IMG/VR virus record: IMGVR_UViG_3300045988_082369
Coordinates: 1-41,232 of that record
Source: a virus
DNA: 41,232 nucleotides
Reading direction: 5' to 3' (one strand)
Shown in pieces: positions 6,652-32,384 of this stretch (positions are counted from its first letter, which is position 1; each line of letters opens with the position of its first letter). A program made the translations under genes and the position numbers. The notes under the pieces are model-generated. The model worked only from the letters and a program-made list of their open reading frames with translations. It was not told the origin of the DNA and ran no database searches.

Positions 6652-7218
6652 ATGGCACTAAAGAAAGTTACAGAAATCCCTACAATTGATGTCAACCTTG
6701 TGACTATCAAGGCTAAGGATGATGCGACTGAGTACGCACTCGACACAGCATCTGAAATTGAAACTGACACTCAGATTGAGGAAACGGATGCTGTAAAACT
6801 TGTTGTCAAGGGTGTGCTAAAGGCACAGAAACCTAAGACCGCAACTCTTACGGGTCACAAGATTAAGCTCAAGGATAACGTGTTTACGCCTGAGCTGGTT
6901 AAGATTCTTCAGGGTGGAACTATCACAATGGACGCAGGAAATCCTAAGAAGGTTCTCAAGTACGAACCGCCAAAGGTTGGTGAAGTTGTGAAACTACCGC
7001 CATTTACTCTGTGTGCTTACTCAGCTATTTACAACGCAGCTGGGCAGGTTACAGGATATGAGAAGATTTCATACCCTAATTGCAAGGGCGAACCTATCTC
7101 ATTCAACTCTGAGGACGGCAAGTTCAGAACACCTGAGTACACAATTTACAGTGCACCTGATACGGGTCAAGCACCATACACAATAGAATTTGTGGACGCA
7201 TTACCACAGATTTCATAG
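6652..7218 (+). CDS. Major tail (tube) protein
   Basis: 188-aa ORF immediately upstream of the chaperone pair and tape measure gene. AGGAGG SD. Confidence 0.6.
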   Translation: MALKKVTEIPTIDVNLVTIKAKDDATEYALDTASEIETDTQIEETDAVKLVVKGVLKAQKPKTATLTGHKIKLKDNVFTPELVKILQGGTITMDAGNPKKVLKYEPPKVGEVVKLPPFTLCAYSAIYNAAGQVTGYEKISYPNCKGEPISFNSEDGKFRTPEYTIYSAPDTGQAPYTIEFVDALPQIS

Positions 7219-18335: not shown

Positions 18336-18714
18336 TGGCTTTTAACTCCCTTCCAATCTGCTCTGTAACCCATACACCTGCCCAACCGTGACTGTCAATA
18401 ATGGCATCCGTTGTCATGTACGGGTACACTTTTTTGTATCTATCAACAATTAAGTCTTTAATTAACTTGATATCTAAAGATGTTTCGAGTTGGATGCTTA
18501 CATTAAATTCTTGTAAAGCCCAACGCTCTATGACATCTTTCATGTCTCGTTTTCTCAATCCAAACAACTTGAGATATTCCCTCAAGACCCTTGAATTGAC
18601 GTAGCAAAAATGGTGTGCCTTTGGCTTATCTCCAGGAAACTTGGAAACGGTCACATATATCTTTGTTTTACACGTCATTTCAGAGAACTCAGGCACAGGT
18701 CTTATCGTACTCAT
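18295..18714 (-). CDS. Hypothetical protein
   Basis: 139-aa ORF. Its ATG overlaps the upstream stop (ATGA). Confidence 0.5.
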   Translation of the reverse strand: MSTIRPVPEFSEMTCKTKIYVTVSKFPGDKPKAHHFCYVNSRVLREYLKLFGLRKRDMKDVIERWALQEFNVSIQLETSLDIKLIKDLIVDRYKKVYPYMTTDAIIDSHGWAGVWVTEQIGRELKANARATYNRLFKST

Positions 18715-19415
18715 TTTGCCTCCGTGTCAGGGCGGTCTAGGAACTTGTCAAGGTCTCTTTGATATAAGTGTAAAGACCCTGCTATATGAGTGTAAGACCC
18801 TATACCAACACCCAATTCCATCGCCATGCGAATCTGAAAACACGTGAAGTTAAACACATCATATGGGAATCCGAACCAAACATCATTACTTCTCATATAA
18901 GTTGTTAAAAACAGCTTGCCCTCACGGATGAAGAACTGAAGACACACAGTGCAAGGTGTATCCTTAGTTTTGTAGTCCATCGGATTTTTAATATGAATTA
19001 CAGCCTGTCTACTGTTAGGGTCAGCCTTGAGAAGATTCTTCACATACTCCCATTGGTCAAACCCATAGAATTTATGTATCTTATGACCGTAATTAGAGTT
19101 GACAACTTCCCCGTCATCACTCATTCTATCCCAAGCCTTAGTGTAATTTTGAATACCTTTAAGGGTATTGTCAGCAGCTAGATACCACATCAACTCACCA
19201 ATCATGTACTTCTTGCTGAGCTTTCTCAAGTCAGATTCAACTATATTGTTTCTAGGGTCATCAATAATTGTGACCGCATTGATAATTTCAGCTGCTACGT
19301 TCCCGTCTCTTGAGGATTGAATATCTTGACCCGTGGACATGTCAAGCAGCATGTGAAACCATGATTCCCAAGCCTCAGTTGCATTATTAACAGTAACTTG
19401 TTTATTAATCAGCAC
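18711..19415 (-). CDS. ThyA-family pyrimidine dNMP hydroxymethylase/methylase (resembles T4 gp42)
   Basis: Aligns without gaps to the ThyA core: PCTVCLQFFIREGKLFLTTYMRSNDVWFGFPYDVFNF. Catalytic Cys155 is at 18951-53. Asp186 (18858-60) sits at the Asn177-equivalent position. Also NSNYG and DPNSRQ as in T4 gp42. GTG start with an AGAGGGGG SD. Confidence 0.8.
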   Translation of the reverse strand: MLINKQVTVNNATEAWESWFHMLLDMSTGQDIQSSRDGNVAAEIINAVTIIDDPRNNIVESDLRKLSKKYMIGELMWYLAADNTLKGIQNYTKAWDRMSDDGEVVNSNYGHKIHKFYGFDQWEYVKNLLKADPNSRQAVIHIKNPMDYKTKDTPCTVCLQFFIREGKLFLTTYMRSNDVWFGFPYDVFNFTCFQIRMAMELGVGIGSYTHIAGSLHLYQRDLDKFLDRPDTEAK

Positions 19416-20298
19416 ACCAGACCCCCTCTACAAAATTCACTTCAATGTTGTTAGTTTTGGCATATTGATACTCTGCCTTAGCCCCCTTGGAACTTTCCCA
19501 GCCAGGCAGCATATAGATAGAGTCGCAAGACTTCAGCAGGTGGAGACAAATAACCATGTAGTCCTCCCAGCCACAGATTTTAGGTAACTCTACATCGGCT
19601 GGATTAACAACAATCCAATCGGGGCACTCAAGTTTAATGCGATTCTCTATTTTTTTGAACCTCTCCTTGAAATCCGTTGTTCCTGTTATTTTCCCACTAA
19701 TATACACACGTTTAGGGGACTTAGGAACGGGGTTTGGTAAATCTTCCCTCTGAGATACTGCTTTTAGCAACATATTCGCCATCATATACGCCACATCTTC
19801 GTAAATCCAATGGCTGCGTTTCCAATCATTTGGGGGCAGTTTTATTGTTAAATCGTAAGAGCACTTGCCATCATTGACCCCCCAACGGTCTATTTCGTTA
19901 GGGTCAGCCTTGAGGTCTCTTTCAACAAGAATTGTGTATATCCAAGTGTTCTTCCCATCTTCGTACTTTTCCCTGAGGTCTTTAAACCTCTTAGGGTCTC
20001 TAACATGATAAAATGTGATATTGAGCCCGTCTCTAGGTCTTAAGATGCTGTCTTCCCAAGTTTTTAAAAGACCCTTAGTCTCCATCCAATCCACAATGTC
20101 TGCCAACAACTTGCGGGTTTCTTCATCTCGGGAATTATCCCAGCCCAGTGTTTTCAAGGCTTGTTTTGCAAGGTCTGACCTGTGGTAGTTGTGAACCTCT
20201 AAATTGAATGTTATTTCATACAAATGTTTAGTCACATGTTTTACAAGAGTATCTTTGCCAACGCCAGATTCTCCGTTGATTAAAAATATTAAATTCAT
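19405..20298 (-). CDS. Fusion of a T4 gp1-like dNMP kinase (aa 1 to about 165) and DUF4406, a nucleoside 2-deoxyribosyltransferase-like domain (aa about 197-297)
   Basis: N-terminus MNLIFLINGESGVGKDT (compare T4 Dnk MKLIFLSGVKRSGKDT). C-terminus VYISGKITG...NPA...W.DYM..CL.LL..CD.IYMLPGWE.S.GA..E matches the DUF4406 pattern. Confidence 0.7.
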   Translation of the reverse strand: MNLIFLINGESGVGKDTLVKHVTKHLYEITFNLEVHNYHRSDLAKQALKTLGWDNSRDEETRKLLADIVDWMETKGLLKTWEDSILRPRDGLNITFYHVRDPKRFKDLREKYEDGKNTWIYTILVERDLKADPNEIDRWGVNDGKCSYDLTIKLPPNDWKRSHWIYEDVAYMMANMLLKAVSQREDLPNPVPKSPKRVYISGKITGTTDFKERFKKIENRIKLECPDWIVVNPADVELPKICGWEDYMVICLHLLKSCDSIYMLPGWESSKGAKAEYQYAKTNNIEVNFVEGVWCAD

Positions 20299-21879
20299 TT
20301 AGCCCTCCTTGATTATCTCTAAGAACTTTTCAACACAGTCTTTTTTCTTCCAATTGCTATTATCAACAACTTGTACATTAAATCCTGCAGTTTTGAACTT
20401 CTCAATGCCACGTTCCATCGTTCGATATTTACCCTCAACTAGGCTTTCATTTATGGCTTTACCACCATTCCGCTTGTATATTCGCTTTATACAAGTTTTT
20501 AGCGGAGGCATAAAGTACAAAATTTTGGTTTTTAAGCCACGTTTTTCTTCCAACTCAGTAAATAGGTCAGCATATGTCCTAAAAATCGTACTTACCACTA
20601 TTCCTTCAAAGATTACGGTGTACTCTGGATAAGCCTTTAGTACATACTTTAGCGACTTGCGAACCGTTGCCCCGTCTTTCAGAGAATCTACACCACCACA
20701 TTTGTTCGAGTATTTACCTAAGGCAACTATTTTGTAATTTGGATATACCGTTGCAATTATTGTGTTCTTGCCGTTTACAGGCTTTTTAACCTCAAACACA
20801 TCAGGGTCTAGTTCTCTAAGCAATATCAATGGTGTGGATTTTCCAGCCCCGTTTGTACCTCTAATGTTTATAATTTGAGTGTGTGCGCTTTTAGCAGATT
20901 TAGCAGTCTCCGCTCCAGTCAGCCCTTGTTCAATAAACATTTTCTTTCTGCCTTTCCTTACACCTGCCCAATCATTGTGCTCACCTAAGAATCTTACATC
21001 AAACAACTTTTCTCTTATGTTAAAAACTTGTTCCCAATCCTTCTGATATTGAGGGAATACTTGTTGATAATTGATAAGTTGTTCTAATTCTCTATCGTGA
21101 TGATATCCTGCATATCTTGAGGATTTAAACAGATTCCTAAAGCTACACAATTTTCCTGCAAACATATTAATGTCGTTGGGTTGCTCTGGGTAAGTTGATG
21201 CTATAACTGTTTGAACCTCTTTTAGCATAGGCTCAAGAAGTTGTCTATGCTCTTCAGAGATTTTACCTGTCTTGTCAAAAATGTTTGCTTCCCCATCTAA
21301 ATACATGAGGTTAAGTAAAGCGGATGTCAGATTACTGCAAGAGTTCCAATCTAACTCTGAAGGCTCAATGAATTTTGTGCCTAAATAGTCATTAAGATAT
21401 AGGATACTCTCCATAAACAATTCTACAGAGAATCTTCCTGTATATCTCAACTTTAACAACCGTCTAAATACTTGATTATAACCCTTCTCATTTTGCTCAA
21501 AATGCTTAAGCCACTTCAAAGGCTTATTGTGGGTTACAGCTTTAAATTGTTGTATTAATTCAACAAACCAATCCATGTTTTTTGCGTATTTTCTTGAGCT
21601 GTTAAACTCCAGAAAAGTTTTGTTATTTTCCCAATAAAACTCCGTATCATCCAATACCTGTTCATGATTATGCCCAAGTATAATACAAGTCAGTTCGTTA
21701 TATGTACACGACATATACCAACACATCCATACAGCCTTATCTTTTGACACTTGGTTTATTTTAATGTATTCGCCTAAGACCCTGAAGTGCAAACTTGGGA
21801 CGGCATGTTGATACTCTACAAACTTCTTTAATCTCCAAGGGTGACCGTAGTCACCCTTGATATTATATAAATCAGCCAT
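20299..21879 (-). CDS. Fusion protein: N-terminal helical domain of about 330 aa (possibly aGPT-Pplase-like) plus a C-terminal P-loop kinase domain (candidate DNA 5-hydroxymethylpyrimidine kinase)
   Basis: Walker A GTNGAGKST at 20833-20859 (aa 341-349). The N-domain shares G.F....LF.[DE] and LLNL motifs with ORF 31034-32035. The ATG at 21879 overlaps the upstream stop (TAATG). Function is inferred. Confidence 0.5.
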   Translation of the reverse strand: MADLYNIKGDYGHPWRLKKFVEYQHAVPSLHFRVLGEYIKINQVSKDKAVWMCWYMSCTYNELTCIILGHNHEQVLDDTEFYWENNKTFLEFNSSRKYAKNMDWFVELIQQFKAVTHNKPLKWLKHFEQNEKGYNQVFRRLLKLRYTGRFSVELFMESILYLNDYLGTKFIEPSELDWNSCSNLTSALLNLMYLDGEANIFDKTGKISEEHRQLLEPMLKEVQTVIASTYPEQPNDINMFAGKLCSFRNLFKSSRYAGYHHDRELEQLINYQQVFPQYQKDWEQVFNIREKLFDVRFLGEHNDWAGVRKGRKKMFIEQGLTGAETAKSAKSAHTQIINIRGTNGAGKSTPLILLRELDPDVFEVKKPVNGKNTIIATVYPNYKIVALGKYSNKCGGVDSLKDGATVRKSLKYVLKAYPEYTVIFEGIVVSTIFRTYADLFTELEEKRGLKTKILYFMPPLKTCIKRIYKRNGGKAINESLVEGKYRTMERGIEKFKTAGFNVQVVDNSNWKKKDCVEKFLEIIKEG

Positions 21880-22514
21880 TATTCTTCGTCCCAATCGTCC
21901 CAATCATCGTCATCATCTTCATCCTCAGGTTCAGGCTCAGCCTTCTTTTTGGACTTAGTTGACTTTTTGGATTTAGGTTCAGACTTCTTGGATTTAGTTG
22001 ACTTCTTAGACTTCTTTGGCGGTTCTTCTTCTTCCTCCTCGTCATCATCTTCATCATCCTCGTCCTCAAGCTCATCTTCATCCTCATCATCTTCGTCATC
22101 GTCATCTTCATCAATGTCGTCCTCATCGCCTGTGATAGCAGCTCCAACCTTGCGGGTCTCAGCAACTCTTGCTCTGTCCTTACCCTCATACTCCTCGTAC
22201 TTAACAGTTAGCTCAAGGGTCTTGCCTTCCATCTTGTCAAGGTCAATCTGAACTCTGCCATCAGCCTTCATTCCAATAGCCTCAAGTAGACCCTTCAGTT
22301 TCCACAAAGCAGTGTCAATTAGAGGGTAGTTCTCAATAACCTTGCAGCCCTTAGAAGCACCAGCAATAACAACAAATGTTACCTTGAACATATCGTTACC
22401 GCCCTGTGATACGGTCTCCTCAATCTTCTCAATCTTAACCTTGTGAACTCCTTCAGCAGGCATGTTAAAGGTCTCAACTCCAGTAAAATCCAACTTCATC
22501 TTTCTCTTTGCCAT
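21879..22514 (-). CDS. DUF669-type putative ssDNA-binding protein with a long charged tail
   Basis: N-terminal DUF669-like core next to a Sak4-like gene. Tail of D/E runs, a KSKKSTKSKK duplication, and terminal DDDWDDWDEE. Confidence 0.65.
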   Translation of the reverse strand: MAKRKMKLDFTGVETFNMPAEGVHKVKIEKIEETVSQGGNDMFKVTFVVIAGASKGCKVIENYPLIDTALWKLKGLLEAIGMKADGRVQIDLDKMEGKTLELTVKYEEYEGKDRARVAETRKVGAAITGDEDDIDEDDDDEDDEDEDELEDEDDEDDDEEEEEEPPKKSKKSTKSKKSEPKSKKSTKSKKKAEPEPEDEDDDDDWDDWDEE

Positions 22515-29364: not shown

Positions 29365-29733
29365 TTACTCCAATTCTCTAAGTTTTGTTGTTATCTCCAT
29401 GCCTTCGTCACTTGCTAGCCACTTCTTAACTCGCCCCATCTTAAGACCTAACTCAACTGATAAATCTTCATCACTTATCTGAAAAATCTCAAGGACATGG
29501 TCAAGAACGATGATAACGTCAGCAACTTCCCCAGCTACAGCTTTTCTAGTGTCAGCTACAGCCTTCTCGTGACTTCCGTATCTCATGTACTTTAGTAACT
29601 CTTTAGCTAATTCACAGCACTCTTCAGCAGCTACAGCAATTTGATTGCGTTCTCCGAACTTCTCACGAGCTATTTTGAGTGCCTCGATATCATCTGAAGA
29701 TAACAGATTTCTATGTATAATTGATTTTCTCAT
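29365..29733 (-). CDS. MazG-like nucleotide pyrophosphohydrolase
   Basis: All-alpha protein of 122 aa with AAEECCELAKEL and GEVADVIIVLD metal-binding helices. Confidence 0.75.
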   Translation of the reverse strand: MRKSIIHRNLLSSDDIEALKIAREKFGERNQIAVAAEECCELAKELLKYMRYGSHEKAVADTRKAVAGEVADVIIVLDHVLEIFQISDEDLSVELGLKMGRVKKWLASDEGMEITTKLRELE

Positions 29734-29737
29734 GCTT

Positions 29738-30229
29738 TTACCTCTCTACGTCTATATATCGCCAGTCATCAACGTGCGTGACCTTAACATTACCCTCGTC
29801 AAATATACGTTCAGTCTCCTGTGATATAACCTGACCTCTGCCATAATACACGTGCTTTATACCTGCGGTCACAATTGCTCTAGCACAGGCTTCACAAGGG
29901 TATCGGGTCACGATGATTGTTGACCTTGATATCTGAATCCCGAACTTAGCTGCGGTTGCGATAGCATCAATCTCAGCATGGACTGCCCTGCAATCGGAAG
30001 GCAATCTGTGTTCCTTGCTGTCTTCTCCATACAGCTCAACTCGATGACACCCTGAGACCTTGCAAGTTTTTGGAATAGTTCTATTTACACCATAAATCTC
30101 GTGAATTGATTGCTTAGAGCTTTTAGGCTGAACAATTACACAGCCAACAGCAACTTTTACGCAACCTGAGGTGTCATCTGCGTGAGATTGAGCACGGTCT
30201 AAAAATTCAATAACTTCATCTTTTTTCAC
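29738..30229 (-). CDS. dCMP deaminase (ComEB/T4 Cd-like)
   Basis: Zinc motifs VHAEIDAI and RYPCEACARAI. Confidence 0.9.
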   Translation of the reverse strand: MKKDEVIEFLDRAQSHADDTSGCVKVAVGCVIVQPKSSKQSIHEIYGVNRTIPKTCKVSGCHRVELYGEDSKEHRLPSDCRAVHAEIDAIATAAKFGIQISRSTIIVTRYPCEACARAIVTAGIKHVYYGRGQVISQETERIFDEGNVKVTHVDDWRYIDVER

Positions 30230-30702: not shown

Positions 30703-31047
30703 TTACCTCCCAAAATTCTCATCAGCTTTAACAATATACGTTCCGTTATCTGCCCTAACTTGCTCAGGGCTAGCAATTATCACAACCGTTCCAGCCTTTA
30801 TGACCCCTTTGTCGGTCACAACATCCTCTTCATAGACCACGGCAGATGGGTGTGGCTTAGCTGCCACGTAGTTATCTATCGAGGAATGGCTGTATGACCT
30901 ATACTCTTTAATCACCATTTTTTGATGGCTAATTCCCTTTTTCTGGTGTTTAATCACGCAGGTTGAGTAAAGGAGCAGCAGCTCTAAAATAATTGCCGTA
31001 ATAGCCAAAATAAAGGCTATAAGCTGTACACGTTTAATCTCTTTCAT
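30703..31047 (-). CDS. Membrane-anchored hypothetical protein
   Basis: AAGGAGG SD 6 nt before the ATG at 31047. N-terminal TM helix (LIAFILAITAIILELLLLY). Confidence 0.55.
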   Translation of the reverse strand: MKEIKRVQLIAFILAITAIILELLLLYSTCVIKHQKKGISHQKMVIKEYRSYSHSSIDNYVAAKPHPSAVVYEEDVVTDKGVIKAGTVVIIASPEQVRADNGTYIVKADENFGR

Positions 31048-32035
31048 CAGATTCCTCCTTAAATGGCTTATAAGTGTTCTTTGGTTTTCCCAGCCCGTAG
31101 TAGGCTTTGTAGTATTTTTGTAACTCACAGAAACAGTTCTCCAGCGACATCACGTTCATCTTTTGGTCGTACTCAGGAAGGTCTGTAAATATCTTGGAAA
31201 AATCAAGTTCTTTGTTAATTACATCTACCAACCAAAACAAGCACTCTTCATAGTTTAAACCTCCTTTGCTTGTAAATAACAAGTTTAACCCAGCTTTACA
31301 TCCAGGACCAGCTACAACAAAAGAGTTTTCACTTACAGGAAACTCTGGAATATAGGTAAAGTCTACAAACAATTGATACCCCATAAAAGCTCCAATGCCT
31401 TCGAATTTCTTAAGGGTTTGATATACCTGATAACCTCCACCAGTAATGTGCTTAGGAGACAACTTTTGGAGTGACCTATGCTCAATTAAGTGCTTTATAA
31501 GCCATAGCACTCTCATAGGCACGCAATCCTCTCCTTCGCAATATCGCTCTAGCCCCATTTTCAATCCTGAAGTATAAAACACATTGGTGAAGTATAGATG
31601 ATCAGAGTCACTACACAATTCTCGATACTCCTCAGGGTCGAAATTCTTAGTGAATTTAATTGGCAGCCCCAATTTCTCTGCAGTTTGGTGTCGGTTGAAT
31701 AGCCTAAACATAACTGTATTGAGCAGCTTATCTCGATAAGACAGCTCAGGGTTTGTTGAAATATGCTCTATCAACCACTTAGATTCTCTGTCGTGTTCTC
31801 TCCGTATGTTAGTGAACCTCCAATGTTGTAAGACAGGGTCATCTGTCCACGGCTGTGACTCTCCTGCCTCTTTCGCCAGTCTAATGGCGTACCTCTCCTG
31901 AATATAGTATAGAAGCATTCTGTACACGTCCATGTCTAATTGTGGACAATCAGACCTTATTTTGTCTACGTTCACCAGTCGTGAACAGAATACATCCCCA
32001 CTCTTGTTTTGCAATAGTTGTGCCCTCCTTAACAT
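31034..32035 (-). CDS. Candidate DNA base-hypermodification transferase (aGPT-Pplase-like). Start is ATG 32035 or SD-backed TTG 32014.
   Basis: Motifs ERYAIRLAKEAGESQPWTDDPVLQHWRFTNIRREHDRESKW and FEGIGAFMGYQLFVD. The family assignment is from memory of that family's pattern. AAGGAGGG (32023-32030) lies 8 nt before the TTG at 32014. Confidence 0.5.
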   Translation of the reverse strand: MLRRAQLLQNKSGDVFCSRLVNVDKIRSDCPQLDMDVYRMLLYYIQERYAIRLAKEAGESQPWTDDPVLQHWRFTNIRREHDRESKWLIEHISTNPELSYRDKLLNTVMFRLFNRHQTAEKLGLPIKFTKNFDPEEYRELCSDSDHLYFTNVFYTSGLKMGLERYCEGEDCVPMRVLWLIKHLIEHRSLQKLSPKHITGGGYQVYQTLKKFEGIGAFMGYQLFVDFTYIPEFPVSENSFVVAGPGCKAGLNLLFTSKGGLNYEECLFWLVDVINKELDFSKIFTDLPEYDQKMNVMSLENCFCELQKYYKAYYGLGKPKNTYKPFKEESDERD

Positions 32036-32132: not shown

Positions 32133-32384
32133 CTATTTAGCATTTTCGCAGTTTTTCTCCGCTATACGAGTAGCAATAGTTTGAGGTAATAGAGCGGAAG
32201 TGACAATATGACCCGTCTTCAAGACGATGACAGATTTTACACGCTTTCCGTAGTTTAACTCAACACAAGCATTAGTGTCCTTAGCATTGTTTAGTAACCT
32301 CTTAACTGGTGACGACTCTGGTGGTGAGATAGTCTCAATCTCATCTACTTTCACAAAACTGTTAGTTCCAACATTTACAAACAT
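32133..32384 (-). CDS. remA: RemA (DUF370) family DNA-binding protein
   Basis: ISPPESSPVKRLLNNAKDTNACVELNYGKRVKSVIVLKTGHIVTSALLPQTIATRI lines up with the B. subtilis RemA core SPESAPIKR...IDATYGRRTRAV...ILSAVQPETVAQR. Confidence 0.75.
   Translation of the reverse strand: MFVNVGTNSFVKVDEIETISPPESSPVKRLLNNAKDTNACVELNYGKRVKSVIVLKTGHIVTSALLPQTIATRIAEKNCENAK

Follow-up and report, generated by a model that had tools for sequence, protein, structure and literature searches.

Architecture of the fused gene

The window, a 41,232-nucleotide stretch of viral DNA (IMG/VR record IMGVR_UViG_3300045988_082369), carries on its minus strand the open reading frame (ORF) 20299-21879, in which a domain resembling the amino acid:DNA transferases (AADT) is followed by a kinase of the 5-hydroxymethyldeoxyuridine (5-hmdU) DNA kinase family (Table 1). 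The ORF is uninterrupted. Its ATG shares one base (TAATG) with the stop codon of the DUF669 gene that lies upstream, and the downstream gene begins directly after its own stop codon; it is part of a tightly packed operon within the replication and nucleotide-metabolism module. An in-frame TTG at position 21903 provides an alternative start, which we judge unlikely. The first-pass annotation of this DNA, made from the letters alone, had described a single polypeptide that joins an α-helical N-terminal part of about 330 residues to a P-loop kinase in the C-terminal 190 residues or so, and this outline holds in each of its parts, as detailed below.

The C-terminal half shows the clearest family relationship. 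Pfam assigns residues 327-494 to PF18748 (5-hmdU DNA kinase) with an E-value of 1.6e-28 and a score of 100 bits, where the cut-off is 27, and the isolated C-terminal half scores 101.9 bits against the same family. The Walker A motif GTNGAGKST lies exactly at the nucleotides given in the first-pass annotation. The kinase domain is 40.9% identical to that of SP10 gp186 (E-value of 3e-30) and 37-40% identical to the kinases of ViI-like phages. Both SP10 gp186 and a kinase-only truncation of it phosphorylate 5-hmdU DNA (PMC8989533). The genome also holds a thymidylate synthase (TS)-like gene (18711-19415) and a PF18723 gene (31034-32035), which are the usual associates of this kinase. Judged by these matches, the C-terminal half is a member of the 5-hmdU DNA kinase family (5-HMUDK, PF18748).

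To place the fusion among its relatives, 5.8 billion clustered proteins were searched for homologues, and 323 relatives were found. Among the best 120 of them, 20 are full-length fused homologues (488-538 residues, 43-94% identity) and about 100 consist of the N-domain by itself (roughly 335 residues, 50-60% identity). The split relatives have N-domain and kinase genes that overlap by a few bases in different frames. In the contig L003, for example, the start of the kinase gene (ATGAGTAG...) and the stop of the N-domain gene share 8 nt, which are read in different frames. By this gene arrangement, translation couples the transferase-like and kinase functions in the majority of relatives, while a minority has them fused, which argues for a functional partnership of the two. 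Since most relatives have separate genes with a slight overlap in another frame, a single indel would fuse them, and the fused ORF could in principle be an assembly or frameshift artefact that unites two overlapping genes. However, the 20 fused homologues are independent, they come from various contigs and samples, and all of them have an in-frame linker. Because the coupled or fused state recurs across the relatives in this way, we exclude an assembly artefact, which would be extremely improbable. No fused homologue occurs in 50,697 cultured-phage records, in which only LysYB1 and LysYB2 cover both halves, as two adjacent genes. As a separate observation, the database kinase call in L003 (6986-7597) begins too far downstream, so that the P-loop (IVNIRGCNGSGKST) seems to lie between two genes; the true ATG is at 6995.

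Table 1. Features of the fused gene and of functionally related genes in the window (residue numbers refer to the product of ORF 20299-21879).
Feature	Position	Strand	Basis or remark
Whole two-domain ORF: AADT-like domain, then 5-hmdU DNA kinase	20299..21879	-	526 aa plus stop
All-helical N-domain, aa 1-325, best read as a divergent Pplase2/PF18724 superfamily member	20905..21879	-	AlphaFold2, Foldseek, profile search
Gly148-Arg149-Phe150, aligned with the G144-P145-W146 hairpin of gp46	21430..21438	-	alignment
Ala241-Gly242, at the metal-ligand positions Glu243-Thr244 of gp46 (ETxLC motif)	21154..21159	-	alignment
Cys245 codon, aligned with the catalytic Cys247 of PaMx11 gp46	21145..21147	-	alignment
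His260-His261-Asp262-Arg263-Glu264	21088..21102	-	alignment
Inter-domain linker, aa 326-334 (AETAKSAKS-H region); recombination breakpoint at its end	20878..20904	-	
5-hmdU DNA kinase domain, aa 335-526 (PF18748)	20302..20877	-	Pfam and identity to SP10 gp186
Walker A P-loop GTNGAGKST, aa 341-349	20833..20859	-	
Cassette differing from contig L006	20880..21882	-	blastn, protein comparisons
TS-like protein	18711..19415	-	PF00303
P-loop NMP-kinase-like N-terminus fused to DUF4406 (nucleoside 2-deoxyribosyltransferase-like)	19405..20298	-	directly downstream, same operon
MazG-like NTP pyrophosphohydrolase	29365-29733	-	
dCMP deaminase	29738-30229	-	
Free-standing clade-1 aGPT-Pplase (PF18723 'HMUDK_hel', M6 gp55 type)	31034..32035	-	Pfam

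Fold, family and active-site residues of the N-terminal domain

The N-domain is nearly invisible to family databases. Its first 325 residues have no Pfam match even at E-values up to 10, PF18724 and PF18723 included, and its close relatives reach 17-25 bits against PF18724, below the cut-off of 26.2. NCBIfam returned no informative match, PDB sequence searches with the protein or a profile returned nothing relevant (chance AcrIIC4 matches only), and the sole PHROG match is phrog_3271, a family of unknown function (E-value of 9e-11). The AlphaFold2 model of residues 1-327, built with 46 homologues, is confident (pLDDT of 84, pTM of 0.82) and has helices throughout. Against BFVD, Foldseek found seven matches at E-values of 1e-3 or lower (best 2e-7), which include proteins named 'Amino acid:DNA transferase domain-containing' in UniProt, with TM-scores of 0.56-0.76. 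Against the PDB, the best match is 8z2m/8z2n, the 5-phosphomethyldeoxyuridine (5-PmdU) glycinyltransferase PaMx11 gp46 (probability 0.98, TM-scores of 0.53/0.59), and the matches after it are helix-hairpin-helix DNA glycosylases. The resemblance to aGPT-Pplase/AADT proteins, for which the first-pass annotation had suggested AlphaFold and Foldseek as a check, is thus found in the fold, the helical type with a helix-hairpin-helix that PUGT (PaMx11 gp46) and the YuA Pplase2 have.

Profile searches point to the same superfamily. The N-domain profile, compared with 1.84 billion cluster representatives, matched 207 proteins at E-values of 1e-3 or lower; among 66 remote profile matches, 47 are PF18724 proteins (best E-value of 2.5e-26) and ten are aGPT-Pplase3. 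M6 gp51, an experimentally proven glycine:DNA transferase, belongs to PF18724 ('ADDT, amino acid:DNA transferase'). Direct detection of gp46 or gp51 by the subfamily hidden Markov model (HMM), by profile comparison or by iterated local searches of the retrieved proteins gave nothing significant. Because of the fold matches and the transitive profile matches to PF18724, the N-domain is best read as a divergent branch of the clade-2 aGPT-Pplase (AADT, Pplase2, PF18724) superfamily.

To compare the active sites, the gp46 numbering was checked against the published residues, equivalences were drawn by alignment through intermediate sequences, and columns were counted over 271 aligned domain rows, with a close subfamily of 143 sequences. 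First, Cys245 of the window protein aligns with Cys247 of gp46, and a Cys occupies this column in 143/143 close-subfamily sequences and 76 of the 78 ungapped remote ones. This Cys is the nucleophile that attacks C6 in the transferases. Second, the metal ligands Glu243 and Thr244 of gp46 are replaced by Ala241 and Gly242. The close subfamily shows V, I, T or A followed by G at these columns and never E, whereas the remote canonical members have E in 64/77 and T or S in 68/77 cases (~85%). In gp46, Glu243 and Thr244 coordinate a metal that contacts O4 (PMC11472151). A Glu near the Cys is essential in M6 gp51 and ViI gp247 (PMC8989533), and the metal ligands, a Glu-Thr pair four and three residues before the Cys and an N-terminal Asp, are indispensable to gp51, gp247 and the enzyme of phage 15599 (PMC13458397); metal-ligand mutation or EDTA abolishes the activity of the characterised enzymes. 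Third, Asp24 and Glu92 of gp46 align to Ser29 and Ser95, with His31 of the window protein two residues from Ser29, and Lys150 aligns to Leu154, while Tyr51 corresponds to Tyr60 and Arg94/His95/Arg97 correspond to Lys97/Tyr98/Lys100. Trp146 of gp46, which clamps the flipped base (PMC11472151), aligns to Phe150 in the hairpin.

The close subfamily also has conserved positions of its own. H260, H261, D262, R263, R248, K252, R255, N183, N190 and E62 are invariant, and C53, C65 and H25 are mostly conserved. The HHDRE sequence lies in an extra segment of ~19 residues that is absent in gp46 and gp51 and reads YYxDR in other PF18724 members. Its Asp-Arg pair is kept throughout this branch of the superfamily, while the His-His pair is confined to the close subfamily; canonical members have a Tyr plus a hydrophobic residue at the H260-H261 positions. 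Because the Cys is invariant while the metal-ligand residues are replaced and further invariant residues are present, the N-domain subfamily is, on the evidence of the alignment, one in which the nucleophile is kept and the rest of the pocket is rebuilt. The Glu-Thr ligands are lost, and the Asp ligand is probably lost as well. With the metal ligands replaced and the His-His pair and Asn, Cys and Glu positions gained, the handling of the leaving group must differ from that in M6 gp51, PaMx11 gp46 and the phage 15599 enzyme, and the donor specificity of the N-domain probably differs from theirs too.

In summary, when it is set beside the PF18724 enzymes M6 gp51, PaMx11 gp46 (PUGT, 8z2m/8z2n), ViI gp247, PhiW-14 gp109 and phage 15599 DADT, the N-domain shares the fold, the G-x-aromatic hairpin, the L-C-x-[FYW]-[RK] motif and the position of the catalytic Cys. 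The genomic partners are also the same, namely 5-HMUDK, a clade-1 protein and a dUMP hydroxymethylase. However, the N-domain has no direct HMM match, shows Ala/Val-Gly for Glu-Thr together with the Ser and Leu replacements of Asp24, Glu92 and Lys150, and is fused to the kinase.

The closest cultured-phage relative of the window protein is the pair M3_0048/M3_0049 of the Lysinibacillus phage LysYB1. M3_0048 scores 398 bits against the N-domain subfamily profile and has the same VGKLC and HHDR motifs; it is directly followed by a PF18748 kinase gene and, two genes beyond the kinase, by a PF18723 gene, in an otherwise different neighbourhood. Unlike the window protein, M3_0048 (L001 5995-7914) is not fused to the kinase; its N-domain is followed by an acidic and Pro-rich linker and then by a C-terminal domain homologous to the C-terminus of SP10 gp185. 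In the description of SP10, gp185 was called 'radical SAM' and Pplase2 was given as 'none detected' (Lee et al. 2018). We found no N-domain homologue in SP10 gp185 (L002 3168-5858), which has only the C-terminal domain in common with M3_0048. By eye, the N-terminus of gp185 looks thymidylate-synthase-like (...RIPCPTTWHF... motif).

Cassette exchange, the clade-1 protein and neighbouring genes

A direct comparison of two N-domain types is provided by the contig L006, which is syntenic with the window at 91-92% DNA identity over 21.5 kb (blastn). The alignment is broken only between window positions 21883 and 20879, exactly the segment that encodes the N-domain, and the clade-1 gene and all else are unchanged. 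The fused protein of L006 (P0020, 488 residues) has a kinase 94% identical to that of the window, which starts at the same QIINIRG. Its N-domain is canonical, with the sequences DGAMDY, FNRDRRY and IESTLCAYYK (D..D / E-S-x-L-C type), and scores 225 bits against a profile built from remote, mostly PF18724-matching homologues, while its similarity to the N-domain of the window is low. Only the N-domain segment is exchanged, in frame and at the domain boundary, which argues that the two N-domain types fill the same functional slot and are swapped as cassettes.

The gene order around the fused ORF is likewise shared. In the split-form contigs L003, L007 and L008, genes for DNA polymerase A, a PD-(D/E)XK nuclease, AAA_24, DUF669, the N-domain, the PF18748 kinase, a set of variable proteins and a TS-like protein follow one another as in the window, and the fused relative L009 has this order too. 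In L007 (5602-7538), a TET-associated glycosyltransferase (PF20691) and then a radical S-adenosylmethionine (rSAM)/SPASM protein are encoded after the kinase, an arrangement that suggests additional tailoring of the modified base in this lineage. Other domain combinations occur among the homologues: the N-domain of P0273 is fused to a TAGT domain, and the remote homologues P0374, P0375 and P0377 have a canonical PF18724 domain with an N-terminal glutamine amidotransferase (GATase_6) fusion.

The second protein of interest, ORF 31034-32035, scores 201.5 bits against PF18723 (cut-off of 25), a family that also takes in M6 gp55 and the C-terminus of SP10 gp186, and is 30-36% identical to proteins of ViI-like phages. 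Such clade-1 proteins commonly accompany the kinase in characterised systems and are dispensable for glycine transfer in the M6 lysate reconstitution. The first-pass annotation had taken this ORF as a second, free paralogue of the N-domain on account of shared short motifs, and had read its presence as a sign of two different substituents or targets. The motifs exist, with RYTGRFSVELFMES at residues 145-158 and ALLNLMY at residues 187-193 of the N-domain, and they occupy collinear positions in the two proteins; however, no similarity is statistically detectable between the sequences. Close paralogy was rejected, with BLASTP E-values of 0.87 or worse and hhalign probabilities of 0.8-1.3%, so that only superfamily-level collinearity is left. 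The canonical transferase family, aligned with the ORF 31034 family by hhalign, gave a probability of 4% and a collinear match that places GPW on GIGAF and ETILC on ENCFC (C303). Because both families align collinearly to the canonical one, the motif pairs are, as far as these alignments go, equivalent positions of a shared ancient fold and no proof of close paralogy. ORF 31034-32035 is the standard clade-1 partner of the M6 gp55 type, and its presence needs no explanation by two substituents or targets.

A circular permutation was also considered, with HDRE at residue 261 of the N-domain and at residue 81 of ORF 31034, and was rejected since GRF/GIGAF, LLN/GLNLLF and LC/FC come in the same order in both proteins. 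The model of ORF 31034 has only weak Ogg/EndoIII-type matches in the PDB, and 8z2m is not among them. The clade-1 family has an invariant S-L-E-N-C-F-C-E motif, of which E299-N-C-F-C303 lies at window positions 31127-31141 on the minus strand, and clade-1 proteins may also be Cys-dependent enzymes.

Regarding nucleotide metabolism, the TS-like protein falls below every NCBIfam thymidylate-synthase equivalog cut-off and shares 35% identity with the SP10 protein that carries the annotation dUMP hydroxymethylase (E-value of 7e-31); it is probably a dUMP hydroxymethylase that supplies 5-hmdU. The genes for the MazG-like nucleoside triphosphate (NTP) pyrophosphohydrolase and the dCMP deaminase make up a nucleotide-pool module typical of hmU phages, and a small HAD-like protein is encoded in the window as well. 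Together with the TS-like and P-loop/DUF4406 proteins, this set is the usual equipment for swapping dTTP for hmdUTP. No pyridoxal phosphate (PLP), rSAM, flavin adenine dinucleotide (FAD) or acetyltransferase tailoring gene was found by Pfam or PHROGs among the scanned replication-module ORFs of the window. The P-loop part of 19405-20298, which resembles nucleoside monophosphate (NMP) kinases, has weak AAA_18 and guanylate-kinase PHROG matches and is a separate 170-residue protein in L003, and L006 has a 288-residue DUF4406 protein at this position.

Two further genes of the window are mentioned for completeness. The DUF669 protein (21879-22514, minus strand) has a long C-terminal tail in which Asp/Glu runs alternate with Lys/Ser repeats (DEDDDDEDDEDEDE...KKSKKSTKSKK...), and because of this tail the poly-Ser ORF on the opposite strand is an artefact. 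Beside the clade-1 gene, 32133-32384 (minus strand) encodes an 83-residue RemA-like protein (PF04025, E-value of 2e-21). RemA-like proteins serve as DNA-binding regulators in Firmicutes, and the gene is thus a hint of a Gram-positive host.

Proposed function and relation to known systems

We propose that ORF 20299-21879 encodes a bifunctional thymidine-hypermodification enzyme with a kinase and a Cys-dependent transferase-like domain, and we consider this reasonably probable. The phage DNA would contain 5-hmdU, made via the dCMP deaminase, the dUMP-hydroxymethylase-like TS homologue, the MazG-like NTPase and the NMP-kinase-like protein. The C-terminal P-loop domain would phosphorylate the hydroxymethyl group in the DNA to give 5-PmdU. 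The N-domain would then act as the catalyst of the second reaction. It would flip the phosphorylated base out with the GRF hairpin and a wedge of K97, Y98 and K100; Cys245 would attack C6, the phosphate would be expelled to leave an exocyclic methylene, and a nucleophile would then add to this methylene. The phosphate and O4 would be handled by the remodelled pocket, rich in His, Arg and Lys, in place of a carboxylate-bound metal. By the fusion, the phosphorylated intermediate could be channelled from one domain to the other.

Activation and substitution by one chain had been put forward in the first-pass annotation. The kinase and AADT-like identities speak for it, and it is our best reading of the locus, although the metal ligands are missing and the displacement step is the part that we infer; for an N-domain without these ligands, belonging to the family does not imply that an amine or amino acid displaces the phosphate. 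Several points weigh against the proposal. The equivalents of Glu243 and Thr244 are Ala and Gly, and Asp24 and Glu92 align to Ser; the Foldseek E-value of the N-domain to 8z2m is weak (0.33); the link to PF18724 is transitive and structural only; and ORF 31034-32035, with its intact E-N-x-x-C motif, could in principle be the catalyst.

In a different assignment, the N-domain is a non-catalytic DNA-recognition or base-flipping module that targets or tunes the kinase, and transfer is carried out by ORF 31034-32035 or does not occur. The loss of the essential Glu, Thr and Asp ligands speaks for such a module, and the E-N-C-F-C sequence of ORF 31034-32035 aligns with ETxLC. SP10 gp186 also bears a helical domain of the aGPT-Pplase type, which its kinase activity does not require and which may have such a tuning role. 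However, C245 is invariant together with the His-His-Asp-Arg residues, R248, K252, R255, N183 and N190, a pattern typical of an active site. Furthermore, the N-domain is mostly a separate protein, a canonical catalytic-type domain takes its place in frame in L006, the LysYB1 N-domain is fused to an rSAM-like tailoring domain and not to a kinase, and transfer in the M6 lysate reconstitution proceeds without clade-1 proteins. We regard a non-catalytic N-domain as quite unlikely.

Alternatively, the N-domain may depend on its Cys and act on 5-PmdU with another outcome, either reducing or resolving the methylene to thymine or transferring a non-amine nucleophile. Hypermodifying phages turn part of their 5-hmdU into T. 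The remodelled pocket would fit such an outcome, since the glycine-binding Asp24 and Lys150 of gp46 align to Ser29 and Leu154 and acidic residues are lost while histidines are gained. Borohydride trapping of the methylene with M6 gp51 yields thymidine, so the scaffold can support reduction, and the absence of tailoring genes among the scanned replication-module ORFs is in keeping with this outcome. However, a binding motif for a hydride donor was not identified, the swap for a canonical transferase domain in L006 suggests an equivalent function, and the idea is purely inferential; it seems to us an unlikely outcome. Going beyond the bifunctional-enzyme proposal, the His-His subfamily may be a mechanistically distinct DNA-base-modifying enzyme, metal-independent or with another metal site, that makes an undescribed thymidine modification, and phages of ~92% identity may switch modifications by in-frame exchange of the N-domain cassette. 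We hold this extension tentatively, as a possibility somewhat short of even chances.

Fusions of a kinase with an aGPT-Pplase have been published, in SP10 gp186 and in metaviromes, which corrects the statement in the first-pass annotation that the two are separate proteins in the characterised phages. SP10 gp186, flagged as a 'domain fusion', is a kinase fused to a helical PF18723 (clade-1 aGPT-Pplase) domain (Lee et al. 2018). Like the window protein, it has a PF18748 kinase and a helical domain of the aGPT-Pplase superfamily in one chain, with kinase domains that are 41% identical. However, its kinase is N-terminal and that of the window protein C-terminal, and its helical partner is of clade 1, whereas the partner in the window protein is related to clade 2 and the clade-1 protein is encoded by the separate gene 31034-32035. 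The metavirome fusions comprise 5-HMUDK joined to a PLP enzyme, and a three-part protein made up of 5-HMUDK, a PLP decarboxylase and an aGPT-Pplase of clade 2 (Lee et al. 2021). The concept of a kinase and a clade-2 transferase in one chain is therefore shared; going by the description of those fusions, the window protein differs in that it consists of two domains, lacks a PLP domain and has a transferase half without metal ligands. Three features appear to be new: the two-domain architecture with a transferase-like N-terminal and a kinase C-terminal half, a sizeable Pfam-invisible subfamily that lacks the canonical metal ligands, and the in-frame cassette exchange between near-identical genomes. 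No new principle is established, since kinase/aGPT-Pplase fusions and the logic of the pathway are already published.

Thymidine hypermodification shields phage DNA from restriction, and the DNA-base kinase and the amino-acid and diamine:DNA transferases are under development as tools for writing chemistry onto DNA. The locus offers a compact single-chain kinase-transferase candidate of this kind. Its N-domain belongs to a large unannotated subfamily that keeps the Cys but has the 'essential' metal site replaced; this tests the generality of the published metal-dependent mechanism, and the remodelled subfamily may point to a new donor or product. Finally, two near-identical genomes that have the same kinase with a canonical or a remodelled transferase domain represent a natural experiment, of the kind that would be expected if host nucleases exert a pressure under which modification chemistry becomes more diverse through the exchange of modules.

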